Shown here: positions 5,701 through 43,896 of the stretch, in pieces | Numbering within the stretch: position 1 is the first letter of the stretch | Layout: every line of letters begins with the position of its first letter | Assembly: GCA_964407715.1 (NCBI GenBank) | Contig: CAYOWP010000010.1 | Coordinates: 1-43,896, forward strand | Origin: an uncultured archaeon | GTDB lineage: Archaea; EX4484-52; JAADEF01 | Direction of reading: 5' to 3' | DNA length: 43,896 nt | Notes under the pieces: model-generated | What the model saw: the letters and a program-made list of their open reading frames with translations, nothing else | Told to the model about the DNA's origin: nothing | The model's database searches: none | Translations under genes and position numbers: made by a program

Positions 5701-5837
5701 GGTATTGTCCAATAATATATTTTGAGAAATTTGGTTAACGGAAAGCATAGCCCTATTCAAAAGGGTTAACTGCTCTCATGCGCTTCTGTGAGAGGTTATG
5801 TTTCCGCTTAACAAATAGAGAATTATTGGACAATATC
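5701..5837. mobile_element. MITE-like element carrying one 81-bp palindromic unit
   Basis: GGTATTGTCCAATAAT ... ATTATTGGACAATATC terminal inverted repeats; unit 5733-5813 nearly identical to 13320-13400. Confidence 0.8.
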
Positions 5838-8956: not shown

Positions 8957-9080
8957 TCCCGCCGCCCGGATTCGAACCGGGGACAATGCGGTATCTGTTG
9001 ATATATGGTAGAGCACCACCAATCCTCTCCATTGGAGAGGATCTACAGCCGCACGCTCTACCAGGCTGAGCTACGGCGGG
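8957..9080 (-). tRNA. tRNA-Tyr(GTA) with 50-nt intron at canonical 37/38 (intron 8993-9042)
   Basis: Reverse complement CCCGCCGTAGCTCAGCCTGGTAGAGCGTGCGG-CT-GTA-G|intron|A-CCGCA...GGTTCGAATCCGGGCGGCGGG-A; BHB central helix CTGT/ACAG; CCA not encoded. Confidence 0.95.
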
Positions 9081-10311: not shown

Positions 10312-11769
10312 GTGAAAATTATGAAACCACAAGAGGAGGAGTTGTTAGATGGAGATTATGAGATAGTAGATCCTGATAAGGAGGATGTCATATTATTTGC
10401 GGATTTTGGAAGAAGAGGCTTAGAGAGAAGTACTGAAAAGATAAGAAAAATAAAAAACACTCAAAAGCTATGTGCATATGGTGTGCTTGGAAGTGTTAGA
10501 GGGATATCAATACTTATAAGAAATGTGTTGGCATTTGAAAACATCAGAAATATATATCTTATTGGAAACGATATCAAACCTTTCTTTTCATTTACCGCTA
10601 TGGAATTATTAGTAAAAAATGGGATTGATGAAAATAAGAGAATCATAGGTTTTAGGGAATACATAAAATCAAAATATGATATGTATCCCATCATTGATAA
10701 TGTTGAATTAGATAATAAAATAATAAATTGGTTCAGGAAATACATTAGAGTGATAAGGATGAGTTCACTTGAAGAGTATGATAGCAATGTTAAAGTTAAA
10801 AGAAATGAAAGTATGAAAGTGGATGCTGAGAGAAAAAAGATTGCATATAAAATCAGAAAACTTAATAAAGAGGAAAATACTTCGAAAAAAACATTAAAAC
10901 CAAAATCCTTTGATGTAATGGTGGGGACACATATATATGAAGAAACAATAGAGGAAGCACATAAGTTGGCTATGCTTCATATACTATTTTCTGGACATGA
11001 AACCGCATCGCAATATGGAAAAACAAAGGAAATCATAAATATGATGATTACTGTAAAGGATCCATATGAAGAGGTTCTTAGCAATTCGCTTTACTTAGAA
11101 TATGGAAAAGATCTCATATCTCCACAACTAAAATCCGATACCTACACCTATGGAAGACTATTATGTTCATATAATGGATTCAATCAAATAGAGAATATAA
11201 TAAATAGGTTGGAAAAGAATCTTGAGGATAGAGCATGCGTGGCATCCTTATGGATGCCATCTATACATCTAACACAAGAAACAGAGCAACCATGCTTAAA
11301 TTTAGTTCATGTGCTTTTGAGGAATAACAAGATAAATATTACAGCATATATAAGGAGCAATGATATGTATAAAGCATGGCCCACAAATGTTGCAGGTTTA
11401 TCTTATATAAACTATCATATTTGGAGCAGATTATCTGAGAAATATGAGGATCTCAAATTGGGATATGTAACTACAATAAGTGGCTCAGCACATATTTACG
11501 AGAGCGATTGGAATGATGCTCTCAAGATAGCACTTACATATGAAAAGGACTTTGTTCAGGATAAATTTGGATACTTCATACTTTCCATGGAAAATGGGAA
11601 ATATGTTGCTAAGATTTATGAGAATAATGGGAACATGATAGGGGTTTTGGAGGATGAATGTCCAGTAAGATTAAGAAAAACGCTTGTGAGATATTTTGCA
11701 ATAACACCAGAGCATGCAAGTTATATTGGAGAGGAGTTAAAAGCTCTAAACAAATTAAAGGAAAAATAA
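10312..11769 (+). CDS. thyA: Thymidylate synthase (ThyA-type) fused to an N-terminal MtrA-like and a C-terminal DUF4346-like domain
   Basis: YTYG.L, NQI, QPCL (catalytic Cys), RSNDM..AWPTN, SAHIYE; N-term GISILIRNVLA..NIR.I.LIG.D; C-term D..GYF...EHASYIGEEL. Confidence 0.8.
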   Translation: MKIMKPQEEELLDGDYEIVDPDKEDVILFADFGRRGLERSTEKIRKIKNTQKLCAYGVLGSVRGISILIRNVLAFENIRNIYLIGNDIKPFFSFTAMELLVKNGIDENKRIIGFREYIKSKYDMYPIIDNVELDNKIINWFRKYIRVIRMSSLEEYDSNVKVKRNESMKVDAERKKIAYKIRKLNKEENTSKKTLKPKSFDVMVGTHIYEETIEEAHKLAMLHILFSGHETASQYGKTKEIINMMITVKDPYEEVLSNSLYLEYGKDLISPQLKSDTYTYGRLLCSYNGFNQIENIINRLEKNLEDRACVASLWMPSIHLTQETEQPCLNLVHVLLRNNKINITAYIRSNDMYKAWPTNVAGLSYINYHIWSRLSEKYEDLKLGYVTTISGSAHIYESDWNDALKIALTYEKDFVQDKFGYFILSMENGKYVAKIYENNGNMIGVLEDECPVRLRKTLVRYFAITPEHASYIGEELKALNKLKEK

Positions 11770-13142: not shown

Positions 13143-13196
13143 AATACTACATAAATCTCCATAATATATTTAAAAATTTTTTGTTTTATTTAACAA

Positions 13197-13423
13197 TGTT
13201 AAGCGGAAAAGCAACCTCTTAAAGAAGAGTATTAGAGCAGCAAACCTTGTAGAGCTAATGCGATTGTAAGAGCAAATTTTCTCGTTAACAAATCCTTATT
13301 AAAAAATTATTAGGCAATTTGTTAACGGGAAGCATAGCCCTATTCAAAAGGGTTAACTGCTCTCATGCGCTTCTTTGAGAGGTTATGTTTCTGCTTAACA
13401 ATAAAGAGTTATTGGACAATGCC
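13197..13423. mobile_element. MITE-like element (left TIR lost) with 94-bp and 81-bp units
   Basis: Right TIR TTATTGGACAATGCC ends at 13423; collinear in reverse orientation with 23544-23798 and 28641-28899. Confidence 0.8.
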
Positions 13424-13480: not shown

Positions 13481-14632
13481 ATGGAAAACCGAAAATTCTT
13501 CTCAATAAGCATTCAGGTTTTGATAACGCTTATGCTTTTATATTCATTAGCTTTAGCTGTGGATGTGGATGTAACAAAGCCATGGCATTATCTCTCGCAA
13601 ATTGCAAAAAGCCGGTTTGATTTGACATCTATTGACTCGGACGAGAATGGAAGGATAGATGCAGGCATTATAGAAGACACATTACAAGACATAACAAACA
13701 ATGGAGCCACCACTACGCATACAATCAATGTAGGCGGATTAAACTCTGCTGGCGCTATTATTGCATCAGGTAACTTGAACATCGGTAGTGGAAAGTTATT
13801 TGTGGATGTTAGTACTGGAAGAGTTGGAATAGGAACAGCTTCACCAACAGCGAAGTTGGATGTGAAGGGAGATGTGAAAATCTCTGGCTCTATTACAGGA
13901 TCAGGAAATCTTAACATTGGTTCTGGAAAGTTATTTGTGGATGTTAGCACAGGTAAGGTAGGTATAGGAACAACATCTCCACATGGTAACCTTGGAATCA
14001 AACAAGGACATGGAGATTGGATTACATTAGAAAGAACTGCTGGTTCTGGATATTGGCATATTCACAATCCAAGTACTCAAGAAAGAATTGAAATTGGTTA
14101 TACTTCCGATAGCGGAACTACTCGATGGGGAATGTTTGTTATTAAAGATAATGGCAATGTTGGAATAGGAACAAATTCACCAACAGCAAAGTTGGATGTA
14201 AATGGAAATCTCAAAGTGAGAGGATTTACTTTAGAGCATCAGGGAGCAGATTTTGTATTGGGGACAAATGATGGTAGAAACAAAGGAAGCAAGACATCTC
14301 AAAGAGCCCTAGTTCATGGTGGTAACGATGAGTTAATAATTAATTATAATGGTGATTTTGAAGGTGGCGTAGTAGTGCAAGGTCCTAGCTTAAAAGTTAC
14401 AGGTTCATTATGCTTAAGTGATGGATGTAAGAGTAAGTGGAGTGAGATTGGTGGTGTAATAGACTTATATAGGGTATACACAGAAACAGGTGGAAGAACT
14501 ATGAATGCGGAAAGTATATGTAGATCAAAAGGATATGATGGATTTTGGGCAGGAATGGATAATGATGATGGAAGTGAATATATCATATGTTATAAAGTAC
14601 GTGAAGGAATCACTATAGTAAGACATTTCTAA
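13481..14632 (+). CDS. Secreted surface protein with tail-fibre-like G(N/R/K)VGIGT.SP repeats
   Basis: Sec-type signal peptide; three VGIGT(A/T/N)SP repeats, two followed by TAKLDV.G; TTATATAT about 30 nt upstream; the ORF-track start at 13385 lies inside the MITE. Confidence 0.8.
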   Translation: MENRKFFSISIQVLITLMLLYSLALAVDVDVTKPWHYLSQIAKSRFDLTSIDSDENGRIDAGIIEDTLQDITNNGATTTHTINVGGLNSAGAIIASGNLNIGSGKLFVDVSTGRVGIGTASPTAKLDVKGDVKISGSITGSGNLNIGSGKLFVDVSTGKVGIGTTSPHGNLGIKQGHGDWITLERTAGSGYWHIHNPSTQERIEIGYTSDSGTTRWGMFVIKDNGNVGIGTNSPTAKLDVNGNLKVRGFTLEHQGADFVLGTNDGRNKGSKTSQRALVHGGNDELIINYNGDFEGGVVVQGPSLKVTGSLCLSDGCKSKWSEIGGVIDLYRVYTETGGRTMNAESICRSKGYDGFWAGMDNDDGSEYIICYKVREGITIVRHF

Positions 14633-16883: not shown

Positions 16884-16927
16884 AATTTTAAATGGATTTA
16901 AATATTATGTTGATGTGGAAAGATAAC

Positions 16928-18421
16928 ATGATAGATAAGAAAGCACATCTTCTAATATTTTCATTTTTAGTATTTGTTGCTCTACCTCTCTCACATGCAG
17001 CCACCTCTCTCAACTCCTGCACCACAATCTCATCTCCAGGAGTTTATTATTTAACTTCTGACATCACTGATTCAAGCAGCACCTGCTTTACAATCTCTAC
17101 TTCTAACGTAACCTTGGATTGCCAAGGACATGTGATTGATGGTACTCAAGCCTCTGGTAGTTATGGCATATATGCCAGTGGCTCCTTAAGCAACATCACC
17201 ATAAGAAACTGCAAAATCCAAGAGTTTTATTATGGAATTTACTTCTATAATGGTGTTCATGATAGCAAGATAGAGAATGTGATAAGTAATGACAACAATG
17301 ATACTGGTATCTTACTTTCCTCTTCCTCATATAATACACTCTCCAATATCACTGCTAACGATAATGACAACTACTTTGGTATTAAGCTTGATCATTCCCT
17401 ATATAATATACTTCATAACATTATTGCCAATAACAATGGATATGGTGGTATAACACTCGATTATTCATCAAATAATACATTAATAAACGTCACTGCAAAT
17501 AATAACAAAGGCACAGATGGAGGTATCTTTCTTGATTATTCCTCGTATAATACATTAATAAACATCACTGCAAATAATAACACTGTAGGGATATACATTT
17601 GGGACGATTGTGAGAATAACATTCTAGCAAATTCTACTTTTCTATATAACAATTATGGGATATCAATAGGTTCAGGAGGGGGAAATAATATTATTTACAA
17701 TAACATTTTTAATGGTACAAAGGATAGCTTCATCTTTATGGATTTTCCACCCAACCAATGGAACACCTCCCTACAACTTGGCCCAAACATAGTGGGGAGA
17801 CCTTTCATAGGAGGAAATGTGTATGCTACTCCTTCAGGAGATGGATACTCGCAAACTTGCGATGATGCGAATCATGATGGGATATGCGATTCTCCATATA
17901 CATTAGCATCAGGAAATGTGGATTATTATCCTCTAGCGTTATCAAAGACATATCCTTTAAATCCAAAAATCTATGTGGGAGAGCAATTGGCATGGAAATA
18001 TGACGGATTCTTTACTAAAAGCGCAAAGATAGATATAACTCCTTACATACTTAATTATATCAACAATAATTGTTCTGGAACATTACCATGTACAATTCCA
18101 ATAACATATAAAGCAGATTCTCGTGGAGGTATTAATATTGTTGGGGATATCATATATAGAGGATATGTGGTAAGGGTCGAGAACATACTCTTTGAGAATG
18201 CAGGAATAAAGAACATAACTATCTATAGCAATGATTATAAGAAAGTATGCTATACAAATCTCTCAAAGATATATGTTTTACCTCCTGGAGGAATAGGCAT
18301 TTTCAGGATACCTTGCGATATACTGTGCAATAACATAAAAGACATAATAGTTGAAACCACGTGTGGTGTAAAGGATAAGCTATCAAGTCATCCTGCAAGG
18401 GATGAGATTTTGAGGTGTTAA
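16928..18421 (+). CDS. Secreted parallel beta-helix (NosD/CASH-like) surface protein
   Basis: Signal peptide; CTTISSPGVYYLTSD, TLDCQGH.IDG, repeated S.N.L.NITANNN..GI, IGGNVY, DGICD.PY, DYYPL; start after TTTAAATA. Confidence 0.85.
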   Translation: MIDKKAHLLIFSFLVFVALPLSHAATSLNSCTTISSPGVYYLTSDITDSSSTCFTISTSNVTLDCQGHVIDGTQASGSYGIYASGSLSNITIRNCKIQEFYYGIYFYNGVHDSKIENVISNDNNDTGILLSSSSYNTLSNITANDNDNYFGIKLDHSLYNILHNIIANNNGYGGITLDYSSNNTLINVTANNNKGTDGGIFLDYSSYNTLINITANNNTVGIYIWDDCENNILANSTFLYNNYGISIGSGGGNNIIYNNIFNGTKDSFIFMDFPPNQWNTSLQLGPNIVGRPFIGGNVYATPSGDGYSQTCDDANHDGICDSPYTLASGNVDYYPLALSKTYPLNPKIYVGEQLAWKYDGFFTKSAKIDITPYILNYINNNCSGTLPCTIPITYKADSRGGINIVGDIIYRGYVVRVENILFENAGIKNITIYSNDYKKVCYTNLSKIYVLPPGGIGIFRIPCDILCNNIKDIIVETTCGVKDKLSSHPARDEILRC

Positions 18422-23543: not shown

Positions 23544-23798
23544 GGTATTGTCCAACAATTCCTTATTGTTAAGCGGAAACTTAACGCGCAAATAGCACTT
23601 ATAGCAGTTAACCCTTTGAATAGGGCTATGCTCTCCGTTAACAAATTGTCCAATAATTTTTTGATGAGGATTTGTTAACTAAAAAATTCGTTCTTACGAT
23701 CGCATTATCTCTACAAGGTTTGCTGCTCTAATCCCTTTTTAAAAGATTACTTTTCCGCTTAACAAAATTTTGTTAATAGGGAATTATTGGACAATGCC
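23544..23798. mobile_element. MITE-like element with two units and an internal TIR copy
   Basis: GGTATTGTCCAACAATTCC ... GGAATTATTGGACAATGCC; internal ATTGTCCAATAAT at about 23645; closely similar to 28641-28899. Confidence 0.85.
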
Positions 23799-28586: not shown

Positions 28587-28640
28587 AATAATAGAGATAG
28601 TCTTAAAAATTTATAAAATTGTAATTGGAGATGCAGGGGG

Positions 28641-28899
28641 GGATTGTCCAATAATCCTTTATTGTTAAGCGGAAACATACCTCTCAAACAAGCGCATGAG
28701 AGCAGTTAACCCTTTTGAATAGGGCTATGCTCTCCGTTAACAAATCGTTCAACAATTTTTGATGAGGATTTGTTAACGAGAAAATTTGCTCCTACAATGG
28801 CATTAGCTCTACAAGGTCAGCTTGCTCTAATACGCTTCTTTAAAAGGTTACTTTTCCGCTTAACAAAATTTTGTTAATAGGGAATTATTGGACAATGCC
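28641..28899. mobile_element. MITE-like element with two units and a candidate 8-bp target-site duplication
   Basis: GG(-)ATTGTCCAATAAT ... ATTATTGGACAATGCC; flanks GCAGGGGG (28633-28640) and ACAGGGGG (28900-28907). Confidence 0.85.
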
Positions 28900-29573: not shown

Positions 29574-29622
29574 CTATATAATAAAATAATATATGTAACC
29601 TTAATTTAAAAATCTTTAAATT

Positions 29623-30041
29623 GGTTAACAGAAAAAATCGCTAACATGAAGGTTTCAAAGCAGCTAACCTAAATAAAAGGTTAGCTGCATACTGTCCTTT
29701 TTTAAGGTTAGCTGCAATAACATGCTCTCTTAAAGAGGTATGCTTCCCGTTAACCATATTTCTCTTTAAAAATTTGGTTAAGGGGAAACCTAACCTTTCA
29801 AGAAGGCACATGGAAGCAGCTAACCTAATTAAGAGTTAGCTGCTGTAATCTCTCTCATTGATAAGGTATTCTTCCCGTTAACCATATTTTTAAAAATAAA
29901 AAATTGGTTAACGCGAGAAAATCGCTATTGCCAAGGTTTTGCAGTATAATAGCCCCCTGCTAAGGTCAGCAGCTTCCCAATCGCTCAGAAAGGTTAGCTG
30001 CTTTGGTGTAGCTAATTGATTTGGTATGCTTTGCATTAACC
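29623..30041. repeat. Tandem array of 3 modular palindromic units (133, 108, 136 bp)
   Basis: Units 29623-29755, 29776-29883 and 29906-30041, each GGTTAA...TTAACC with GCAGCTAACC/GGTTAGCTGC cores; AT spacers of 20 and 22 bp. Confidence 0.85.
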
Positions 30042-30084
30042 AAAATTTGCAAGAAGAGATTATAAAAATTTAAAAAAGAAAAAA

Positions 30085-33853: not shown

Positions 33854-36403
33854 TTAGCAAATTATTTTCCTTTTTATAACTGGATGTAAAGACAACTTAT
33901 CCTTTACACCACATGTAGTTTCAACTATTATGTCCTCTATATCTGAGCAGAACAAATCCTTACATAAAATCTTAAATATACCTATACCTCCTGGTGGGAG
34001 AATATATTTTTTGCTTAAATTAGTAGAGCATACAGGTTTAAGTTGTTTATTATAAATGGTTATATTTGTAATCTCTGCTGTTTCAGTCATTATATTTTCA
34101 ATAATAACTTTGTATCCTTCCTCTCCATGTCTAAGTATCCTTATACTTCCTCTTGAATCTGCAGTTGCTTTAATAGGCACTGTACATGGAAATACATTTC
34201 CACATTTAGTGGAAATATATTTCTTCACAGCATTCAATATATTAACTAAATAGGTTTGTGTAGTATCATTAAAGAAGCCATTATACTTCCATACCAATTG
34301 CTCTCCCACATAGATTTTTGGATTTAAAGGATATGTTTTTGATAATGCTAAAGGATAATAATCTATGTTTCCTGGTGCTAATGTATATGGAGAATCGCAT
34401 ATTCCATCATGATTAGTGTCATTGCAAGTTTCTGAGTAACCATTTCCTGAAGGCGTAGCATACACATTACCACCAATGAAAGGTCTCCCCACTATGTTTG
34501 GTCCAAGTTGTAGAGTGGTATTCCATTGATTTGATGAAGAGGAAATGTAAATGTTGTTGGTGTTGTTAAGAAGGTTGTTGTAGAAAAGGTTGTTATCTGA
34601 ACTACTAAGATAAATACCATATTGAGCACTGTATTTTATTGTGGAATTTGCTATTATGTTGGAGGAAGAGGAATAGAGACAGATACCACGATTATTACTA
34701 TTGGCAGTGATGTTTGTTAATGTATTAGAGGAAGAAGAACTAAAATAGATGCCTTCTCCAGAGTTGCTATTAGCAATGATGTTTGTTAATGTATTGGACG
34801 AACCACTAAGATAAATACCAATGCCCCCATTGTGATTAGCAGTGATATTTATAATAGTATTAGAAGAAGAGCAAGAAAGCACAAGACCCCAATTGTTATT
34901 ATTAACAAGAATATCTGTTATAGTGTTCAAAGAAGAACGAGAAAAACGGATACCGTATCTATTCTCTTTAGCAGTAATGTTTATTAAAGTGTTAAATGAT
35001 GAATACCAATAAATATAAACCCCATCATAACTATTCTCTTTAGCAGTAATGTTTATTAAAGTGTTAAATGATGAATAAGAATCAAGCCAGATGCCATAAT
35101 CCGGGCTACTCTTAGTGATTATATTCTCTAAGGTATTATATTTAGCATTAGTTAAGTAGATATTTGCAGAATCCCAATCTGTTAATTGACAGTTCTTAAT
35201 TACATGACCATAACCATAATCAATATAAATCCCATAATCAGCATTGTCATCTCCGTCTATTAAATGGTTTTGGCAATCAAATGTTATTTCTGGATATGTA
35301 TAAGGATCAAAATATATACATTTAGATGTGGTGAAGTTTATAATATCAACAGTTAATTGCACTATATCATTGGGAGTTGCATTGTTTTGTATTATAGATG
35401 TACACTCGCTACATGATGAGCAAGTAAATGTTTTTTGAGGTGTTCCTGTATAGATTGGATAGTAATCATATTTATTATTGATGGCATAAGGGTTATCGCA
35501 TATATTGTCATTGTTAGTATCATAGCATCCTTCATGTTCAGCATCATATGCTAACCAGTGATTTCCTATGTTTGTGTAGTTCCATTTTGTTGTTGATGAT
35601 TCATCTGAGATTTTATATTTTGATGATAATAGATTGTTATAAAAGAGATTGTTATCACCGGATGTTATTCTTATATCATTGATTTTATTTCTTATTATGG
35701 TATTGTTTTTGAAGAGATTATTATCTGAATTCTTTAGGTAAATACCTTGAGCATTGAATGTGATTGTTGTGGATGTGATGTTGTTATCTGAACCATCTTC
35801 GAGCCCAAGACCATATTGATTATTATGTGAGATTGTGGAATTTGCTATGGTATTGAAGGAAGAGGAAGAATAACAAAAATATACACCATAATTGTTATTA
35901 TTAGCAGTGATATTTACAAAAATGTTAAAGGAAGAACCATCAATACGAATACCTGTATCACCATTGTTATTGGCAATAATGTTTGTTAAGGTGTTGGAGG
36001 ATGAGGAAGAGAGACGGATGCCATAATAATTGTTGCTATTACTCACAACATTCTCTATCTTGCTATCATGTACTCCATCACGAAGATAAATTCCATGATA
36101 AAATTCTTGGATTTTGCAGTTTCTTATGGTGATGTTGCTTAAGGAGCCGCTTGCATATATCCCATAACTACCAGAGGCTTTAGTACCATCAATCACATGC
36201 CATTGGCAATCCAAGGTTACATCAGAAGAGGAGATAGTAAAGCAAGTGCTGCTTGAATCAGTGATGTCAGAAGTTAAATAATAAACTCCTGGAGATGAGA
36301 TGGTGGTGCAGGAGTTGAGAGAGGTTGCTGCGTAGGTTAAAGTTATCAAGTTTATAAAACTAAAAAACATCCATAGCAATACTTTATGGTTTTTGATTTT
36401 CAT
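33854..36403 (-). CDS. Secreted tandem parallel beta-helix (NosD/CASH-like) surface protein; paralogue of 16928-18421
   Basis: Signal peptide, two beta-helix domains each ending in ICD.PY/DYYP, shared C-terminal region; GAGGTG RBS. Confidence 0.87.
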   Translation of the reverse strand: MKIKNHKVLLWMFFSFINLITLTYAATSLNSCTTISSPGVYYLTSDITDSSSTCFTISSSDVTLDCQWHVIDGTKASGSYGIYASGSLSNITIRNCKIQEFYHGIYLRDGVHDSKIENVVSNSNNYYGIRLSSSSSNTLTNIIANNNGDTGIRIDGSSFNIFVNITANNNNYGVYFCYSSSSFNTIANSTISHNNQYGLGLEDGSDNNITSTTITFNAQGIYLKNSDNNLFKNNTIIRNKINDIRITSGDNNLFYNNLLSSKYKISDESSTTKWNYTNIGNHWLAYDAEHEGCYDTNNDNICDNPYAINNKYDYYPIYTGTPQKTFTCSSCSECTSIIQNNATPNDIVQLTVDIINFTTSKCIYFDPYTYPEITFDCQNHLIDGDDNADYGIYIDYGYGHVIKNCQLTDWDSANIYLTNAKYNTLENIITKSSPDYGIWLDSYSSFNTLINITAKENSYDGVYIYWYSSFNTLINITAKENRYGIRFSRSSLNTITDILVNNNNWGLVLSCSSSNTIINITANHNGGIGIYLSGSSNTLTNIIANSNSGEGIYFSSSSSNTLTNITANSNNRGICLYSSSSNIIANSTIKYSAQYGIYLSSSDNNLFYNNLLNNTNNIYISSSSNQWNTTLQLGPNIVGRPFIGGNVYATPSGNGYSETCNDTNHDGICDSPYTLAPGNIDYYPLALSKTYPLNPKIYVGEQLVWKYNGFFNDTTQTYLVNILNAVKKYISTKCGNVFPCTVPIKATADSRGSIRILRHGEEGYKVIIENIMTETAEITNITIYNKQLKPVCSTNLSKKYILPPGGIGIFKILCKDLFCSDIEDIIVETTCGVKDKLSLHPVIKRKIIC
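34959..35077. repeat. Exact 47-bp intragenic direct repeat, 72-bp period
   Basis: 34959-35005 equals 35031-35077, encoding YSSFNTLINITAKEN twice. Confidence 0.9.
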
Positions 36404-36829: not shown

Positions 36830-36970
36830 GGTTAAAGGAAAACATACCTCTCACTAAAGGTCTTGAGCATGCCAATACAAGTAAAAGGATAGCTGCTTTA
36901 ATGCCTTTGGATATTAAGTAAATCTTTCGTTAGCCAGGTTCTTTAAAATAAAAATAGTTAACGTAGAGAA
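36830..36970. repeat. Degenerate 106-bp palindromic unit, 20-bp spacer and start of a second unit
   Basis: GGTTAAAGGAAAACATACCTCTC...GGATAGCTGC...TTTCGTTAGCC (36830-36935), then AGTTAACG at 36956. Confidence 0.7.
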
Positions 36971-37052
36971 ATGACAATAAATTAATCACATTACATATAT
37001 TTTTAAAATCTTTTGAGAATAATCTTATTTAGAGATGTTTAAGGGTGAACTT

Positions 37053-38278: not shown

Positions 38279-38279
38279 G

Positions 38280-38428
38280 AGCATTATCCGATAATTCTCT
38301 ATTTGTTAAGCGGAAAAGTAACCTCTTAAAGAAGCGCATTAGAGCAGCAAACCTTATAGAGCTAATGCAATTGTAGGAGCAAGTTTTCTCGTTAATAAAT
38401 CCTCATCAAAAAATTATTTGACAATACC
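38280..38428. mobile_element. MITE-like element carrying one unit of about 94 bp
   Basis: AGCATTATCCGATAAT ... ATTATTTGACAATACC (degenerate TIRs); body matches 13197-13315. Confidence 0.8.
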
Positions 38429-38484
38429 TTCCATAGAAGCCTTAACAAAATCTATAAATATCTCTCCTTTCCTTAATATCTTTT

Positions 38485-41360: not shown

Positions 41361-41373
41361 AACGCATTATCTT

Positions 41374-41784
41374 TTAGAACTTCCATCCATATTCCAATAG
41401 ATGCTTTACAGGCAAAAATAAGTTATCGATTTTATTTAATTTTTTCTTTTCAATCCATACCCATCTTTCACATTTATCTGGTTCAAGATTTTTAAGCGTG
41501 CCTTTTACATTTTCTGCTTTCATAAAAACAGTGATATAATGCTTTTTAGCGTCTTTAAAATAATCGTTGGTTACACCAACAATTTTTAGGTTTGATATCT
41601 CAAGATTGGTTTCTTCTTTTACCTCTCTAATAGCACATTCCTCAAAGCTTTCTCCATATTCTAAATGCCCTCCAGGAAATTGCCAACTATTATTTCCATG
41701 TGTTTTTGATTTACGTAGACCAAGAAGCACCTTACCATTTTTCTCAATAATAACTGCCACACCAACTCTAACATGCTTATCCAT
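41374..41784 (-). CDS. NUDIX hydrolase (NUDT15/MTH2-like nucleotide sanitiser)
   Basis: RVGVAV, W.FPGGHLEYGESFEECAIREVKEETNL Nudix box, HYITVF, EPDKCE.W.W. Confidence 0.92.
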   Translation of the reverse strand: MDKHVRVGVAVIIEKNGKVLLGLRKSKTHGNNSWQFPGGHLEYGESFEECAIREVKEETNLEISNLKIVGVTNDYFKDAKKHYITVFMKAENVKGTLKNLEPDKCERWVWIEKKKLNKIDNLFLPVKHLLEYGWKF

Positions 41785-41851
41785 TTATGATCCCTTAATC
41801 TCCCGTTATATTTTTTACTTTTTCATAGAATTTAAATTATTTTATAATCAT

Positions 41852-42799
41852 GAGCAGTTTGGAAGCAGCTAACATTTCTTAAGGATTAGCTATATTTCCA
41901 GTTATCCAATTTATTTTAAAAAACAAAAAATGGTTAAGTGGAAGAATACCCCATGAATGAGCAATATTACAGCAGCTAACCTTTGAAAGCAGTTAGGAAG
42001 CAGGTAACCCTTAATAGAGGTTAGCTGCTCTAAAACATTTGTGTTAGCGATTTCTTTCCGTTAACCAAATTTTATAAAATAAAAATGGTTAAGGGGAGAA
42101 ACACATAATCAACTAATCTCATTGGAGCAGCTAACCTTTTTGAAGAGGTTTGTGAGCAGCTAACCTTAAAAATGAGGTTAGCATGCTACAAAACCTATGG
42201 TATTGGCGATATCCTGCCGTTAACCAATTATTTTAATAAAAATAGTTAAGGGGAAAAGGTCCTCTTAATGAAGCACATCACAACAGCTAACCTTTTTGAG
42301 AGGTTAGCTGCTCTCAAACCTTTGGAAAAAAGATATCTTCCTGTTAACCAATTTAAAATGGTTAACGGGAAGAGTACCTAATCAATTAGCCACACCAGAG
42401 CAGCTAACCTTTTTGAGAGGTTAGCTGCTCTCAAACCTTTGTATTAGCGATATCCTCCCGTTAACCAATTTAAAAAGAATAAAAAATGGTTAAGGGGAAA
42501 CCTAACCTTGTAAGAGACTATCCAGCAGCAGCTAACCTTTTATTCACGTGTATGAAGCGGCTAACCCAATAAAGCGGTTAGCATGGTGAAAAACCTTTGT
42601 ATTGGCGATTTCTTCATGTTAACCAAATCATTTAAAAAACAAAAATGCGAAATCTTCCAGTTAACCATTTTTTAAATTTTTGTTATTGGTTAACGAGAAA
42701 CATGACTTATAATAAAAGTATCTTGCAGCATGATAAACTTTTATTACATATTATCATGCTGCAATATGATTGCTTGGTTAGGTATCGTTTCTGTTCACT
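41852..42799. repeat. Tandem array of about 8 modular palindromic units (5 intact)
   Basis: Intact units 41932-42066, 42087-42225, 42244-42349, 42360-42466 and 42488-42624; partial or degenerate at 41852-41907, 42647-42666 and 42688-42799. Confidence 0.9.
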
Positions 42800-42856
42800 A
42801 GATTTTTAAAATTAATAAAAAGAACTTTTTTAAACTTCTTTGCCTGAGTTATCATT

Positions 42857-43783
42857 ATGAAGTGCAGTTTATGTGAAAGGGATGCTGTCATCTATAGAAA
42901 ATATAAAGGGGTTGCTTTGTGTGAAAGACATTTTATTAGAAGCATCGAGAGAACATTTTTAAAAACGATAAGAAAATACAATCTTATCTCCTATGGCGAG
43001 AAAGTTGCTGTTGGGTTGTCAGGTGGAAAGGATTCTTCTGTGCTTCTTTATCTTTTAAAAAAATATCAGAAAAAGTATGGTATCAATGTAGAGGCTATAT
43101 TGGTGGATGAGGGAATAAAGGGATACAGAGAAAAAACAAGAAGAAATGCTGAAAAATTCACAAAGGAATTAGGAGTAAAATTACATACAATTACTTTCAA
43201 AGATATCTTAGGAATGACATTGGATGATGCAGTGAAAATAGCAAAAGAAAGAGGAGAAAAAATAAGGGCATGTACAATATGTGGTGTATATAGAAGATAT
43301 GCTTTAGATTTAAAAGCAAAAGAAATTCAGGCAGACAAATTAGCAATTGCTCATAATTTAGATGATGAGGTTCAAAGCATAATGTCAAATTATTTGAGAG
43401 GAGATCTTCTAAGAGCTGCACGTCTTGGTCCAAAACCATATGTAATAGAGAGAGTGTTTGTACAAAGAATAAAACCTCTATTGTTTATCCCAGAGAAAGA
43501 AGTTGCATTATATGCCATGCTTAAGGAGTTACCTGTTAACTTTGATGAATGCCCCTATGCTCACACATCTTTTAGATGGGAAGTCCGCGAAATCATTAAT
43601 TCATTAGAAGTAAAGTACCCAGGAATAAAGTTTAATATAATAAGAACTTATGAAAAAATAATGCCTTGCATAAAAGAAATGCTACCTAAGAGGATATACA
43701 AATGCGCAATATGTGGTATGCCAACATCTAGAAAAATATGTAAAGCATGTGAAATAAAAAGACTTCTTGGTATTGAGAAGTGA
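42857..43783 (+). CDS. tRNA 2-thiolation protein, TtuA/NcsA (TIGR00269) family
   Basis: N-terminal C..C...C..H, PP-loop SGGKDS, C..CGVYRR, HNLDDE, RIKPL, CPY, C-terminal C..CG...C..C. Confidence 0.9.
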   Translation: MKCSLCERDAVIYRKYKGVALCERHFIRSIERTFLKTIRKYNLISYGEKVAVGLSGGKDSSVLLYLLKKYQKKYGINVEAILVDEGIKGYREKTRRNAEKFTKELGVKLHTITFKDILGMTLDDAVKIAKERGEKIRACTICGVYRRYALDLKAKEIQADKLAIAHNLDDEVQSIMSNYLRGDLLRAARLGPKPYVIERVFVQRIKPLLFIPEKEVALYAMLKELPVNFDECPYAHTSFRWEVREIINSLEVKYPGIKFNIIRTYEKIMPCIKEMLPKRIYKCAICGMPTSRKICKACEIKRLLGIEK

Positions 43784-43792
43784 TAAGGTTGA

Positions 43793-43896
43793 TTATATCT
43801 CAGATTTAGGAACAGCACTTATAGTGTAAACAGGCCCATTCTCTCTACTTAGTATCTTATATTCCTTAGTTTCTGGGTTTAATAAAACTAATGGAA
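43793..43896 (-). CDS. 3' end of a CDS entering from beyond the window (...PLVLLNPETKEYKILSRENGPVYTISAVPKSEI*)
   Basis: Open frame from the window edge to TAA at 43795-43793, convergent with the thiolase gene. Confidence 0.5.
   Translation of the reverse strand, partial: PLVLLNPETKEYKILSRENGPVYTISAVPKSEI

Follow-up and report, generated by a model that had tools for sequence, protein, structure and literature searches.

Tandem units made of conserved and variable blocks are typical of CRISPR and TIGR-type guide arrays, and nested inverted repeats with GTT/AAC triplets are found at integron attC and Xer-dif sites. Small symbiotic-type archaea are considered streamlined. In published work, REPs are located chiefly at convergent and co-directional junctions (PMC3733652), the BIME-2 arrays of E. 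coli are bound by gyrase (PMC2817692), up to 146 MITEs per Mb occur in a DPANN genome (PMC11602168), and the IS903-based Tn602 gives 9-bp duplications (PMC9282650). An archaeal MITE census lists 18,091 sequences and may include the MITE described below (PMC11602168), and nothing specific to this repeat came from PMC13343696 or PMC10969869. Among the papers that literature searches listed, none describes the repeat family.

The window, i.e., the whole stretch of DNA analysed (43,896 nucleotides), is contig C10 of a 0.90-Mb genome that is assembled into 16 contigs and is 92% complete. Its genes are archaeal and include a tRNA of intron length, PolB, RadA, and topoisomerase VI. The four sequencing runs that contain the stretch are hydrothermal-vent metagenomes; coverage in runs X3 and X4 is just 12/30 and 14/30 bins. 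A stretch of 43,696 bases in contig C8 recurs in reverse complement on C9 with 100% identity; this duplication in the assembly inflates genome size and repeat counts.

Several other features were recorded in the window. The tRNA gene at 8957-9080 (124 bases) probably contains an intron, and a single frame at 10312-11769 fuses an MtrA-like domain with a thymidylate-synthase-like domain. The beta-helix (NosD/CASH) proteins at 16892-18421 and 33854-36403 belong to an eight-member family whose inter-copy blocks are 80-94% identical in DNA, suggesting module exchange. About 700 bases at 13492-14199, encoding a member of a five-member family of secreted-looking proteins, are 89-95% identical to segments of C1 and C11.

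The focal locus lies between a NUDIX gene and a TtuA-type PP-loop gene. It had been described in the first-pass annotation as non-coding DNA made of nested-palindrome units, and both points were borne out: the longest stop-free frame in 41852-42799 has 54 codons, and the unit at 42360-42466 consists, with exactly the element lengths claimed, of an 11-bp outer repeat, a 27-bp arm, a 12-bp inner repeat, and a 9-bp loop, followed by a 12-bp inner repeat, a 25-bp arm, and an 11-bp outer repeat. As single-stranded DNA, this unit folds with a z of about -7. The layout of the locus is as follows, with strand where one is assigned (TIR, transposon-type terminal repeat).

41374-41784, minus strand: NUDIX gene, flank, context only
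41852-42799: focal array, TIR-less (none within 70 bp), with five complete units in a shared orientation between decayed ends
41861-41907, plus strand: decayed partial unit with inner dyad and short head
41932-42066, plus strand: unit 1, 135 bp, one extra 28-bp inner module
42087-42225, plus strand: unit 2, 139 bp, one extra inner module
42244-42349, plus strand: unit 3, 106 bp, absent from strain X2
42360-42466, plus strand: unit 4, 107 bp, the example unit of the first-pass annotation, absent from strain X2
42488-42624, plus strand: unit 5, 137 bp, one extra inner module
42688-42799, minus strand: decayed unit, apparently in opposite orientation (judged by eye from the sequence)
42857-43783, plus strand: TtuA-type PP-loop gene, flank, context only

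That the focal array is an assembly artefact is rejected by read support, since its sequence was recovered in two runs. Run X1, possibly the source sample, supports 41369-42291 and 42428-43871 with zero differences, no long X1 piece being listed for 42292-42427, and run X2, from a separate study, contains the array minus two units.

The genome-wide scan proposed in the first-pass annotation revealed a large family. A profile of the arm gave 567 matches in the genome at E<0.05 and 0 in the reversed genome; with C9 left out, 530 arms are present at 133 loci, which together make up 42.5 kb, roughly 5% of the genome. A locus is present in 71 of the 80 intergenic regions of at least 400 bp (C9 included), and loci occur at 60/148 divergent, 15/146 convergent, and 49/466 co-directional gene junctions.

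The building block of the family is a 50-bp arm of two types, A and B. A unit reads arm A, 9 bp, an optional 28-bp module, and arm B reversed; it is directional and measures 108 or 136 bp. Arm A terminates in GCAGCTAACC, reversed arm B begins GGTTAGCATGC in many copies, and GGTTAA is read at both outer ends of the unit. The number of 28-bp modules between the arms is zero or one and rarely two, while the inner A-B spacer ranges from 6 to 12 bp with a mode of 9 bp (86/142). A strict pattern recovered 126 full units with lengths near 108 and 136 bp, no two of which are alike. Neighboring units are arranged head to tail in tandem (64 pairs in the same orientation and 1 in opposite orientation), separated by AT-rich linkers of 9-32 bp (mode 20-23 bp). 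B-type inner stems were also seen to carry one unpaired base, and the unit cores to contain GTT/AAC triplets.

The window holds ten repeat loci with bounds drawn by hand, totaling 2,915 bp or 6.6%, in line with the ten intergenic loci and roughly 7% reported earlier. It had also been claimed that the same unit recurs at all ten. The family is indeed shared, but 6/10 loci carry a transposon-type terminal repeat: at least one TIR is present at 1095, 5701, ~13190, 23544, 28640, and 38280, versus none at ~99, 29619, ~36830, and 41852. The nine loci other than the focal array are listed below.

99-244: decayed array remnant, TIR-less
1095-1333: hybrid locus, left TIR and MITE-type arm followed by array-type units
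5701-5837: short MITE, 137 bp, both TIRs
13193-13423: MITE, right TIR only
23544-23798: MITE, 255 bp, both TIRs, duplication gone
28640-28899: MITE, 260 bp, both TIRs, clean 9-10-bp duplication absent
29619-30045: TIR-less array of three units
36830-36936: single decayed unit, TIR-less
38280-38428: MITE, 149 bp, both TIRs, decayed 9-bp duplication (3 mismatches)

Across the genome, 91 arm-bearing ends start with GGCATTGTCCAATAAT, the 16-bp TIR, which is then followed by a MITE arm. The offset from TIR to head, scored at 116 ends, is 24-25 bp in 64 and 33-35 bp in 29, two classes that differ by one helical turn and may reflect few founder lineages. Facing TIR pairs spanning 134-390 bp number 28, and MITE lengths are mostly 125-260 bp. 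Among 46 adjacent facing TIR pairs, 17 are bordered by a 9-10-bp duplication that is exact or has a single mismatch, compared with 0.1% in shuffled pairings; a clean duplication is lacking at the other 29, some of which represent mis-pairing with an internal TIR relic. The TIR-bounded subfamily is multicopy and intergenic, and its own transposase is absent. Having TIRs, target duplications, multiple copies, and no coding capacity, it was shown to be a true MITE, with the features by which MITEs are defined in PMC11602168 and PMC3733652.

At the 133 loci, TIR only was found at 47, TIR with B arms at 20, B arms without TIR at 52, and neither at 14; a TIR is absent nearby at 66, the focal array among them. 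Neither a TIR nor a unit-level target duplication was found that would make the focal array a MITE. Two placements of such duplications were tried and dropped: the 9-bp inner spacers give 3.86 versus 3.98 matches around inner modules, and successive units give 4.48 versus 4.37. At the 126 array units there is only a weak 3-bp excess (25 versus 16.5) in one of 49 tests. That half of the family (66/133 loci) lacks a TIR and that the array units lack duplications gives no support to transposition of the arrays themselves. Mean identity is 85% for MITE arms and 70% for array arms. We regard the MITE as the younger layer and the TIR-less arrays as the other layer of one family, although either of the two may have originated first.

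A ParE/RelE-type toxin gene, preceded by a short frame that is likely its antitoxin, lies between MITE copies at C7:54162-55078 (L086) and at C15:14144-15152 (L096). The copy on C7, a composite of 917 bp, has an exact 8-bp duplication and a ParE/RelE-type gene pair as its sole cargo, which indicates that the MITE can transport a toxin-antitoxin module.

To what extent can a mobilizing enzyme be traced? Family searches of the genome (92% complete) with Y1_Tnp, rve, IS1595, Mutator/IS256, DDE_Tnp_1, IS6, IS1, and DDE_Tnp_1_5 gave no match, and neither did a six-frame search with an IS5 profile. No transposase was recognized by Pfam among the 38 window proteins and 266 of the 736 predicted proteins beyond the window and C9 (those of 100-650 amino acids, basic and with no membrane helix; the other 470 went through the family searches only), or by NCBIfam among 43 unassigned proteins. 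The earlier statement that no cognate enzyme is encoded in the window thus holds and extends to the genome as searched, although at 92% completeness the absence of a cognate transposase is not proven. A Mutator/IS256-type transposase was seen on a small contig of the sister species (L126; G001:C243) and shows no link to the MITE TIR.

The first-pass annotation had offered a REP/BIME-like selfish family as one option, and its strict form, in which single-stranded hairpins are mobilized by a HUH (RAYT) transposase, bears on this search. More than 100 extragenic loci, alternating inverted modules in tandem, and strain-variable length are all as in BIMEs (PMC2817692 and PMC3116915), and good units fold strongly (z of -5 to -8). 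Yet Y1_Tnp (PF01797), the RAYT/HUH profile, has 0 matches in the genome while being positive in 6/14 controls. The 50-bp arms are not palindromes themselves, unlike the 20-40-bp palindromes of REPs, and the GTAG/CGTC tag is absent at the foot of the consensus hairpin of the 126 units. The stems show no compensatory change, whereas REP variants keep pairing (PMC2817692), and the loci favor divergent junctions, opposite to REPs (PMC3733652). Since TIRs and 9-10-bp duplications occur with no GTAG tag, the enzyme class is unlike the HUH enzymes of REPs. We therefore consider a true REP/BIME/REPIN system very improbable: the REP/BIME-like option stands as to architecture and dynamics and fails as to enzyme class, TIRs and 9-10-bp duplications being DDE, IS5-like traits.

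An origin of the TIR from IS1/IS1595 or IS6, proposed on the basis of end motifs, was abandoned in favor of IS5. A TIR search in 200 other archaea yielded background counts with a single exception, genome G197. It has four identical ends that lie at contig ends and differ from the MITE TIR by 2 mismatches of 16, along with a second end type comprising six ends, five with GAGG (3 mismatches) and one with GAAG. This second type runs into a frame with E=2e-7 on the IS5 profile (best of 200 shuffles, E=0.5), the profile having been built from four IS5 transposases with the G197 frame excluded; this 52-amino-acid fragment is unrecognized by Pfam alone. The G197 contig ends (L102-L105 and L117-L123) represent a collapsed multicopy IS5-family element whose body is mostly unassembled, the two end types being assigned to one element solely by contig-end position. 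The profile transposases are IS5 by NCBIfam (one above and one below the cut-off) and match ISAba13 on plasmids. IS5 elements are present in 30/201 genomes; at the five archaeal IS5 loci that were fetched, the duplications are 9 bp long and the TIRs differ from the MITE TIR by 4-8 mismatches. The ISAba13 end agrees with the MITE TIR at 10/16 positions when compared by eye. TIR sequence and 9-bp duplication both match the IS903/ISAba13-like group of the IS5 family.

No arm was found within 31 IS5 loci (best E=0.02). Since the IS5 ends examined are without arms, the arms look like captured cargo and not a piece of the parent IS end. On the minus strand at C15:15256 of this genome (G000), a TIR is followed by about 55 bases in common with a G003 TIR (L106:526-580) and by no arm; shared by two genera of the same family, this TIR plus 55 bases possibly survives from the end of the parent IS. 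Another lone TIR was noted at L029:34. The TIR pattern gave 10 single matches and none paired in viral contigs, and the MITE had no match in plasmids. The MITE is thus best read as IS5-type ends around array DNA.

Public data also captured the family in the course of change. In X2, a joint at 38279-38438 skips 158 bases, i.e., the 149-bp MITE plus 9 bp, as seen in one contig with 30 bases on the short side. In the same run, the focal array carries a 241-bp deletion (42230-42470) that comprises two whole units, units 3 and 4; the same 13 bases, located at the unit end, occur at both of its breakpoints. Metagenome contig L014, which is 99% identical to C11 and represents the same species, has an array with one extra 122-bp unit and one inner module fewer than its C11 counterpart, and 20 substitutions in 829 array bases versus 10 in 2,222 flanking bases (the flank being partly rRNA). 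New alleles of L014 are found elsewhere in the family, in the same 9-base context, for 15/18 versus 20/36 of unobserved alleles, a pattern that fits gene conversion, although the test is crude. These data showed that gain and loss of complete units and of inner modules between strains take place where 12-13 bp of sequence are shared. Both whole-unit strain differences break within the B-arm head (n=2).

The units themselves are mosaics. In a four-gamete test, all four gametes occur at 161/171 site pairs, and r2 drops from 0.17 to about 0.03 within 10 bp, and the linkage analysis showed no sharp boundary and resolved no recombination hot spot within the unit. Arms are slightly more similar within than between arrays (A, 0.75 versus 0.70; B, 0.77 versus 0.72). 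Similarities of different segments are almost unlinked, with correlations of at most 0.19 except for two spacers, which coincide in short units.

The regular grammar of conserved and variable blocks and the stable folds (z of -5 to -8 for good units and about -2 for weaker ones) would also suit an array encoding guide RNAs or other structured non-coding RNAs whose targeting segments vary. The variable middles, however, are degenerate versions of a single consensus. Their longest matches in the rest of the genome barely exceed those of reversed controls (mode of 14 versus 13 bases, with a maximum of 19 in both). The sole match at the Rfam gathering score in the window is a tRNA, and 10 weak Rfam matches in the array all lie far under the cut-off. 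The stem-covariation check came out negative: inner stems of the 126 units have no excess of covariation over shuffles, and the outer stem is at most marginal, pairing at 10.55 of 13 positions versus 10.43 with partners shuffled (p=0.03, mainly position 1). Together with the absence of an Rfam gathering-score match and the preference of loci for divergent junctions, this leaves the structured-RNA option of the first-pass annotation unsupported; an RNA array is extremely improbable. The CRISPR array elsewhere in the genome has a different repeat.

That CRISPR-Cas locus (C4:65787-77828; Cas6, Cas4, and Cas1 by Pfam) has 20 repeats spaced 66-68 bp apart and is unrelated to the palindromic arrays. 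One of its spacers has a 17-base match at 37003-37019 of the window, and the spacers have 6 short matches of 15-17 bases to the rest of the genome.

As for sequence conservation, array units diverge by about 30% while the TTAA core of the head is nearly invariant, being intact in 143/148 A arms and 121/126 B arms when the core was left free in the search. Nearest-neighbor arms differ in the core 0 times among 56 A pairs and once among 60 B pairs, compared with about 8 differences for an average column. Such constancy of the TTAA core is not expected under neutral decay, and it is the main observation that a selfish-DNA reading explains poorly.

A host-selected lattice of double-stranded protein-binding sites, acting in chromosome organization, supercoiling, or segregation and with the MITE as a hitch-hiker, would account for near-invariant cores despite 30% divergence. 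It would also suit stems without covariation, as duplex sites would show, and the narrow spacings (a 9-bp spacer, 20-23-bp linkers, and two TIR-to-head offset classes). Gyrase B, MC1, and ScpB, moreover, are encoded in the genome. Weighing against it, the number of units varies freely among strains, the 14 largest paralogue groups include no expanded DNA-binding family, and a search of 41 genomes from the order did not detect the repeat. All 4 other family members encode gyrase B yet lack the repeat, and gyrase was accordingly ruled out as a species-specific partner. The dyad-binding lattice proposed at first sight therefore retains the nearly invariant core and the narrow spacings in its favor and loses on a sister species in which the family was not found (279 kb searched) and a strain-variable copy number; we regard it as possible but unlikely. 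For reference, gyrase B lies at C2 ~76100-78030 and MC1 at C2 ~101660-101965, and gyrase B occurs in 17/42 genomes of the phylum.

Distribution data placed the family in one species. The inner dyad occurs 191 times in this genome (both strands, C9 included); none of the 160 other archaea searched, 41 belonging to the same order, has more than one occurrence. In 60 contigs (279 kb, about 28% of the genome) of the sister species, G001, neither an arm nor a dispersed repeat of comparable kind was found. The exact arm pattern gave 1 chance single match in a collection of species genomes and 0 in viral contigs. In metagenomes it matched 6 loci, a single one of which is an array, L014, from the same species. 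Array DNA compared with 60 relatives gave 6 weak single matches (E of 2e-4 to 9e-3), with no arms in the loci that were fetched.

Gene order with the sister species, compared over 28% of its genome, is kept at 0/27 repeat junctions versus 51/146 repeat-free ones (p=4e-5). The difference persists against repeat-free gaps of at least 30 bp (0/27 versus 14/54, p=0.003) and in a relaxed test (1/27 versus 16/54, p=0.008). Repeats may cause the breaks or merely share tolerant sites with them. Combined with the position at gene-order breakpoints, the strictly kept core hints that a protein still acts on the repeat.

Tyrosine-recombinase sites have a fixed 6-8-bp spacer between binding arms. If the units were sites of a site-specific recombinase, either the single XerA or an unrecognized enzyme, the shuffling of units and of gene order would follow from one activity, and the 0/27 conserved junctions, the two whole-unit breaks in the B-arm head, and the GTT/AAC triplets in the cores point in this direction. 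The inner spacer, however, varies from 6 to 12 bp and is not fixed, two breakpoints are too few, and linkage has no sharp boundary. XerA passes the archaeal XerA cut-off and not that of integron integrases (200 bits versus 265), is 67% identical to the sister-species copy compared with a 66% median, and has no array beside it. The synteny pattern would look no different under ordinary homologous recombination, or if insertions were tolerated in non-operon gaps. A recombinase-site reading is thus improbable.

A combined variant was considered as well. Here, the TIR-less arrays would be a maintained, protein-bound recombination lattice, and not decaying remnants of transposons; the lattice would have driven gene-order reshuffling since the divergence from the sister species, and its unit would have been hijacked by the IS5-type MITE. 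The arrays would be satellite-like DNA undergoing concerted evolution round a GTTA/TAAC core, and the MITE would use the unit as cargo to seed sites and to carry the toxin-antitoxin module. We judge this variant quite unlikely.

We consider it fairly probable that the family is species-restricted, selfish, modular non-coding DNA that is moved in trans by IS5 and reshaped by recombination. The MITE would be mobilized by an IS5-family (IS903/ISAba13-like) DDE transposase that is lost or unassembled here, and new loci would arise from MITE insertions. The seeded loci could then be expanded, shuffled, and stripped by slippage, unequal recombination, and gene conversion, and the dispersed copies could serve as substrates of genome rearrangement. 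The focal array would be an expanded locus without TIR.

Taken together, this is a real, active, species-restricted repeat system that is most likely selfish. In this small vent archaeon, a single repeat family takes up about 5% of the genome and the majority of the long intergenic regions. The organism provides a natural case of BIME-like mosaic arrays that are without RAYT and associated with an IS5-type MITE; public data record their gain and loss among strains, and the repeats are linked to breaks in gene order. Should a binder of the core exist, it would be a new archaeal chromosome-organizing or recombination protein; if there is none, this is a well-documented new MITE/array family and a useful strain marker.

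Compared with known systems, the arrays resemble CRISPR and TIGR arrays in their tandem units with conserved and variable blocks, but the variable blocks are degenerate copies and not unique spacers, and an adjacent effector is absent. Nested inverted repeats, GTT/AAC triplets, and an unpaired base in B-type inner stems are shared with attC arrays, from which the family differs in lacking gene cassettes (linkers of 9-32 bp) and an integron integrase and in having a variable spacer and more than 100 loci. The REP, BIME-2, and REPIN repeats of proteobacteria (PMC2817692, PMC3116915, PMC3733652) are likewise high-copy extragenic alternating modules in tandem arrays restricted to one species. Unlike them, the present family is archaeal, is tied to a DDE-type MITE, is enriched at divergent and not convergent junctions, and has no RAYT found, no GTAG/CGTC tag, and no compensatory stem changes. 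With IS5-family MITEs it shares non-coding elements of 90-390 bp, TIRs of about 16 bp, 9-10-bp duplications, intergenic location, and strain variability. It differs from them in that the partner transposase is missing from the assembly, a toxin-antitoxin module is enclosed by two of the copies, and the interior comes from a larger family that also forms TIR-less tandem arrays.
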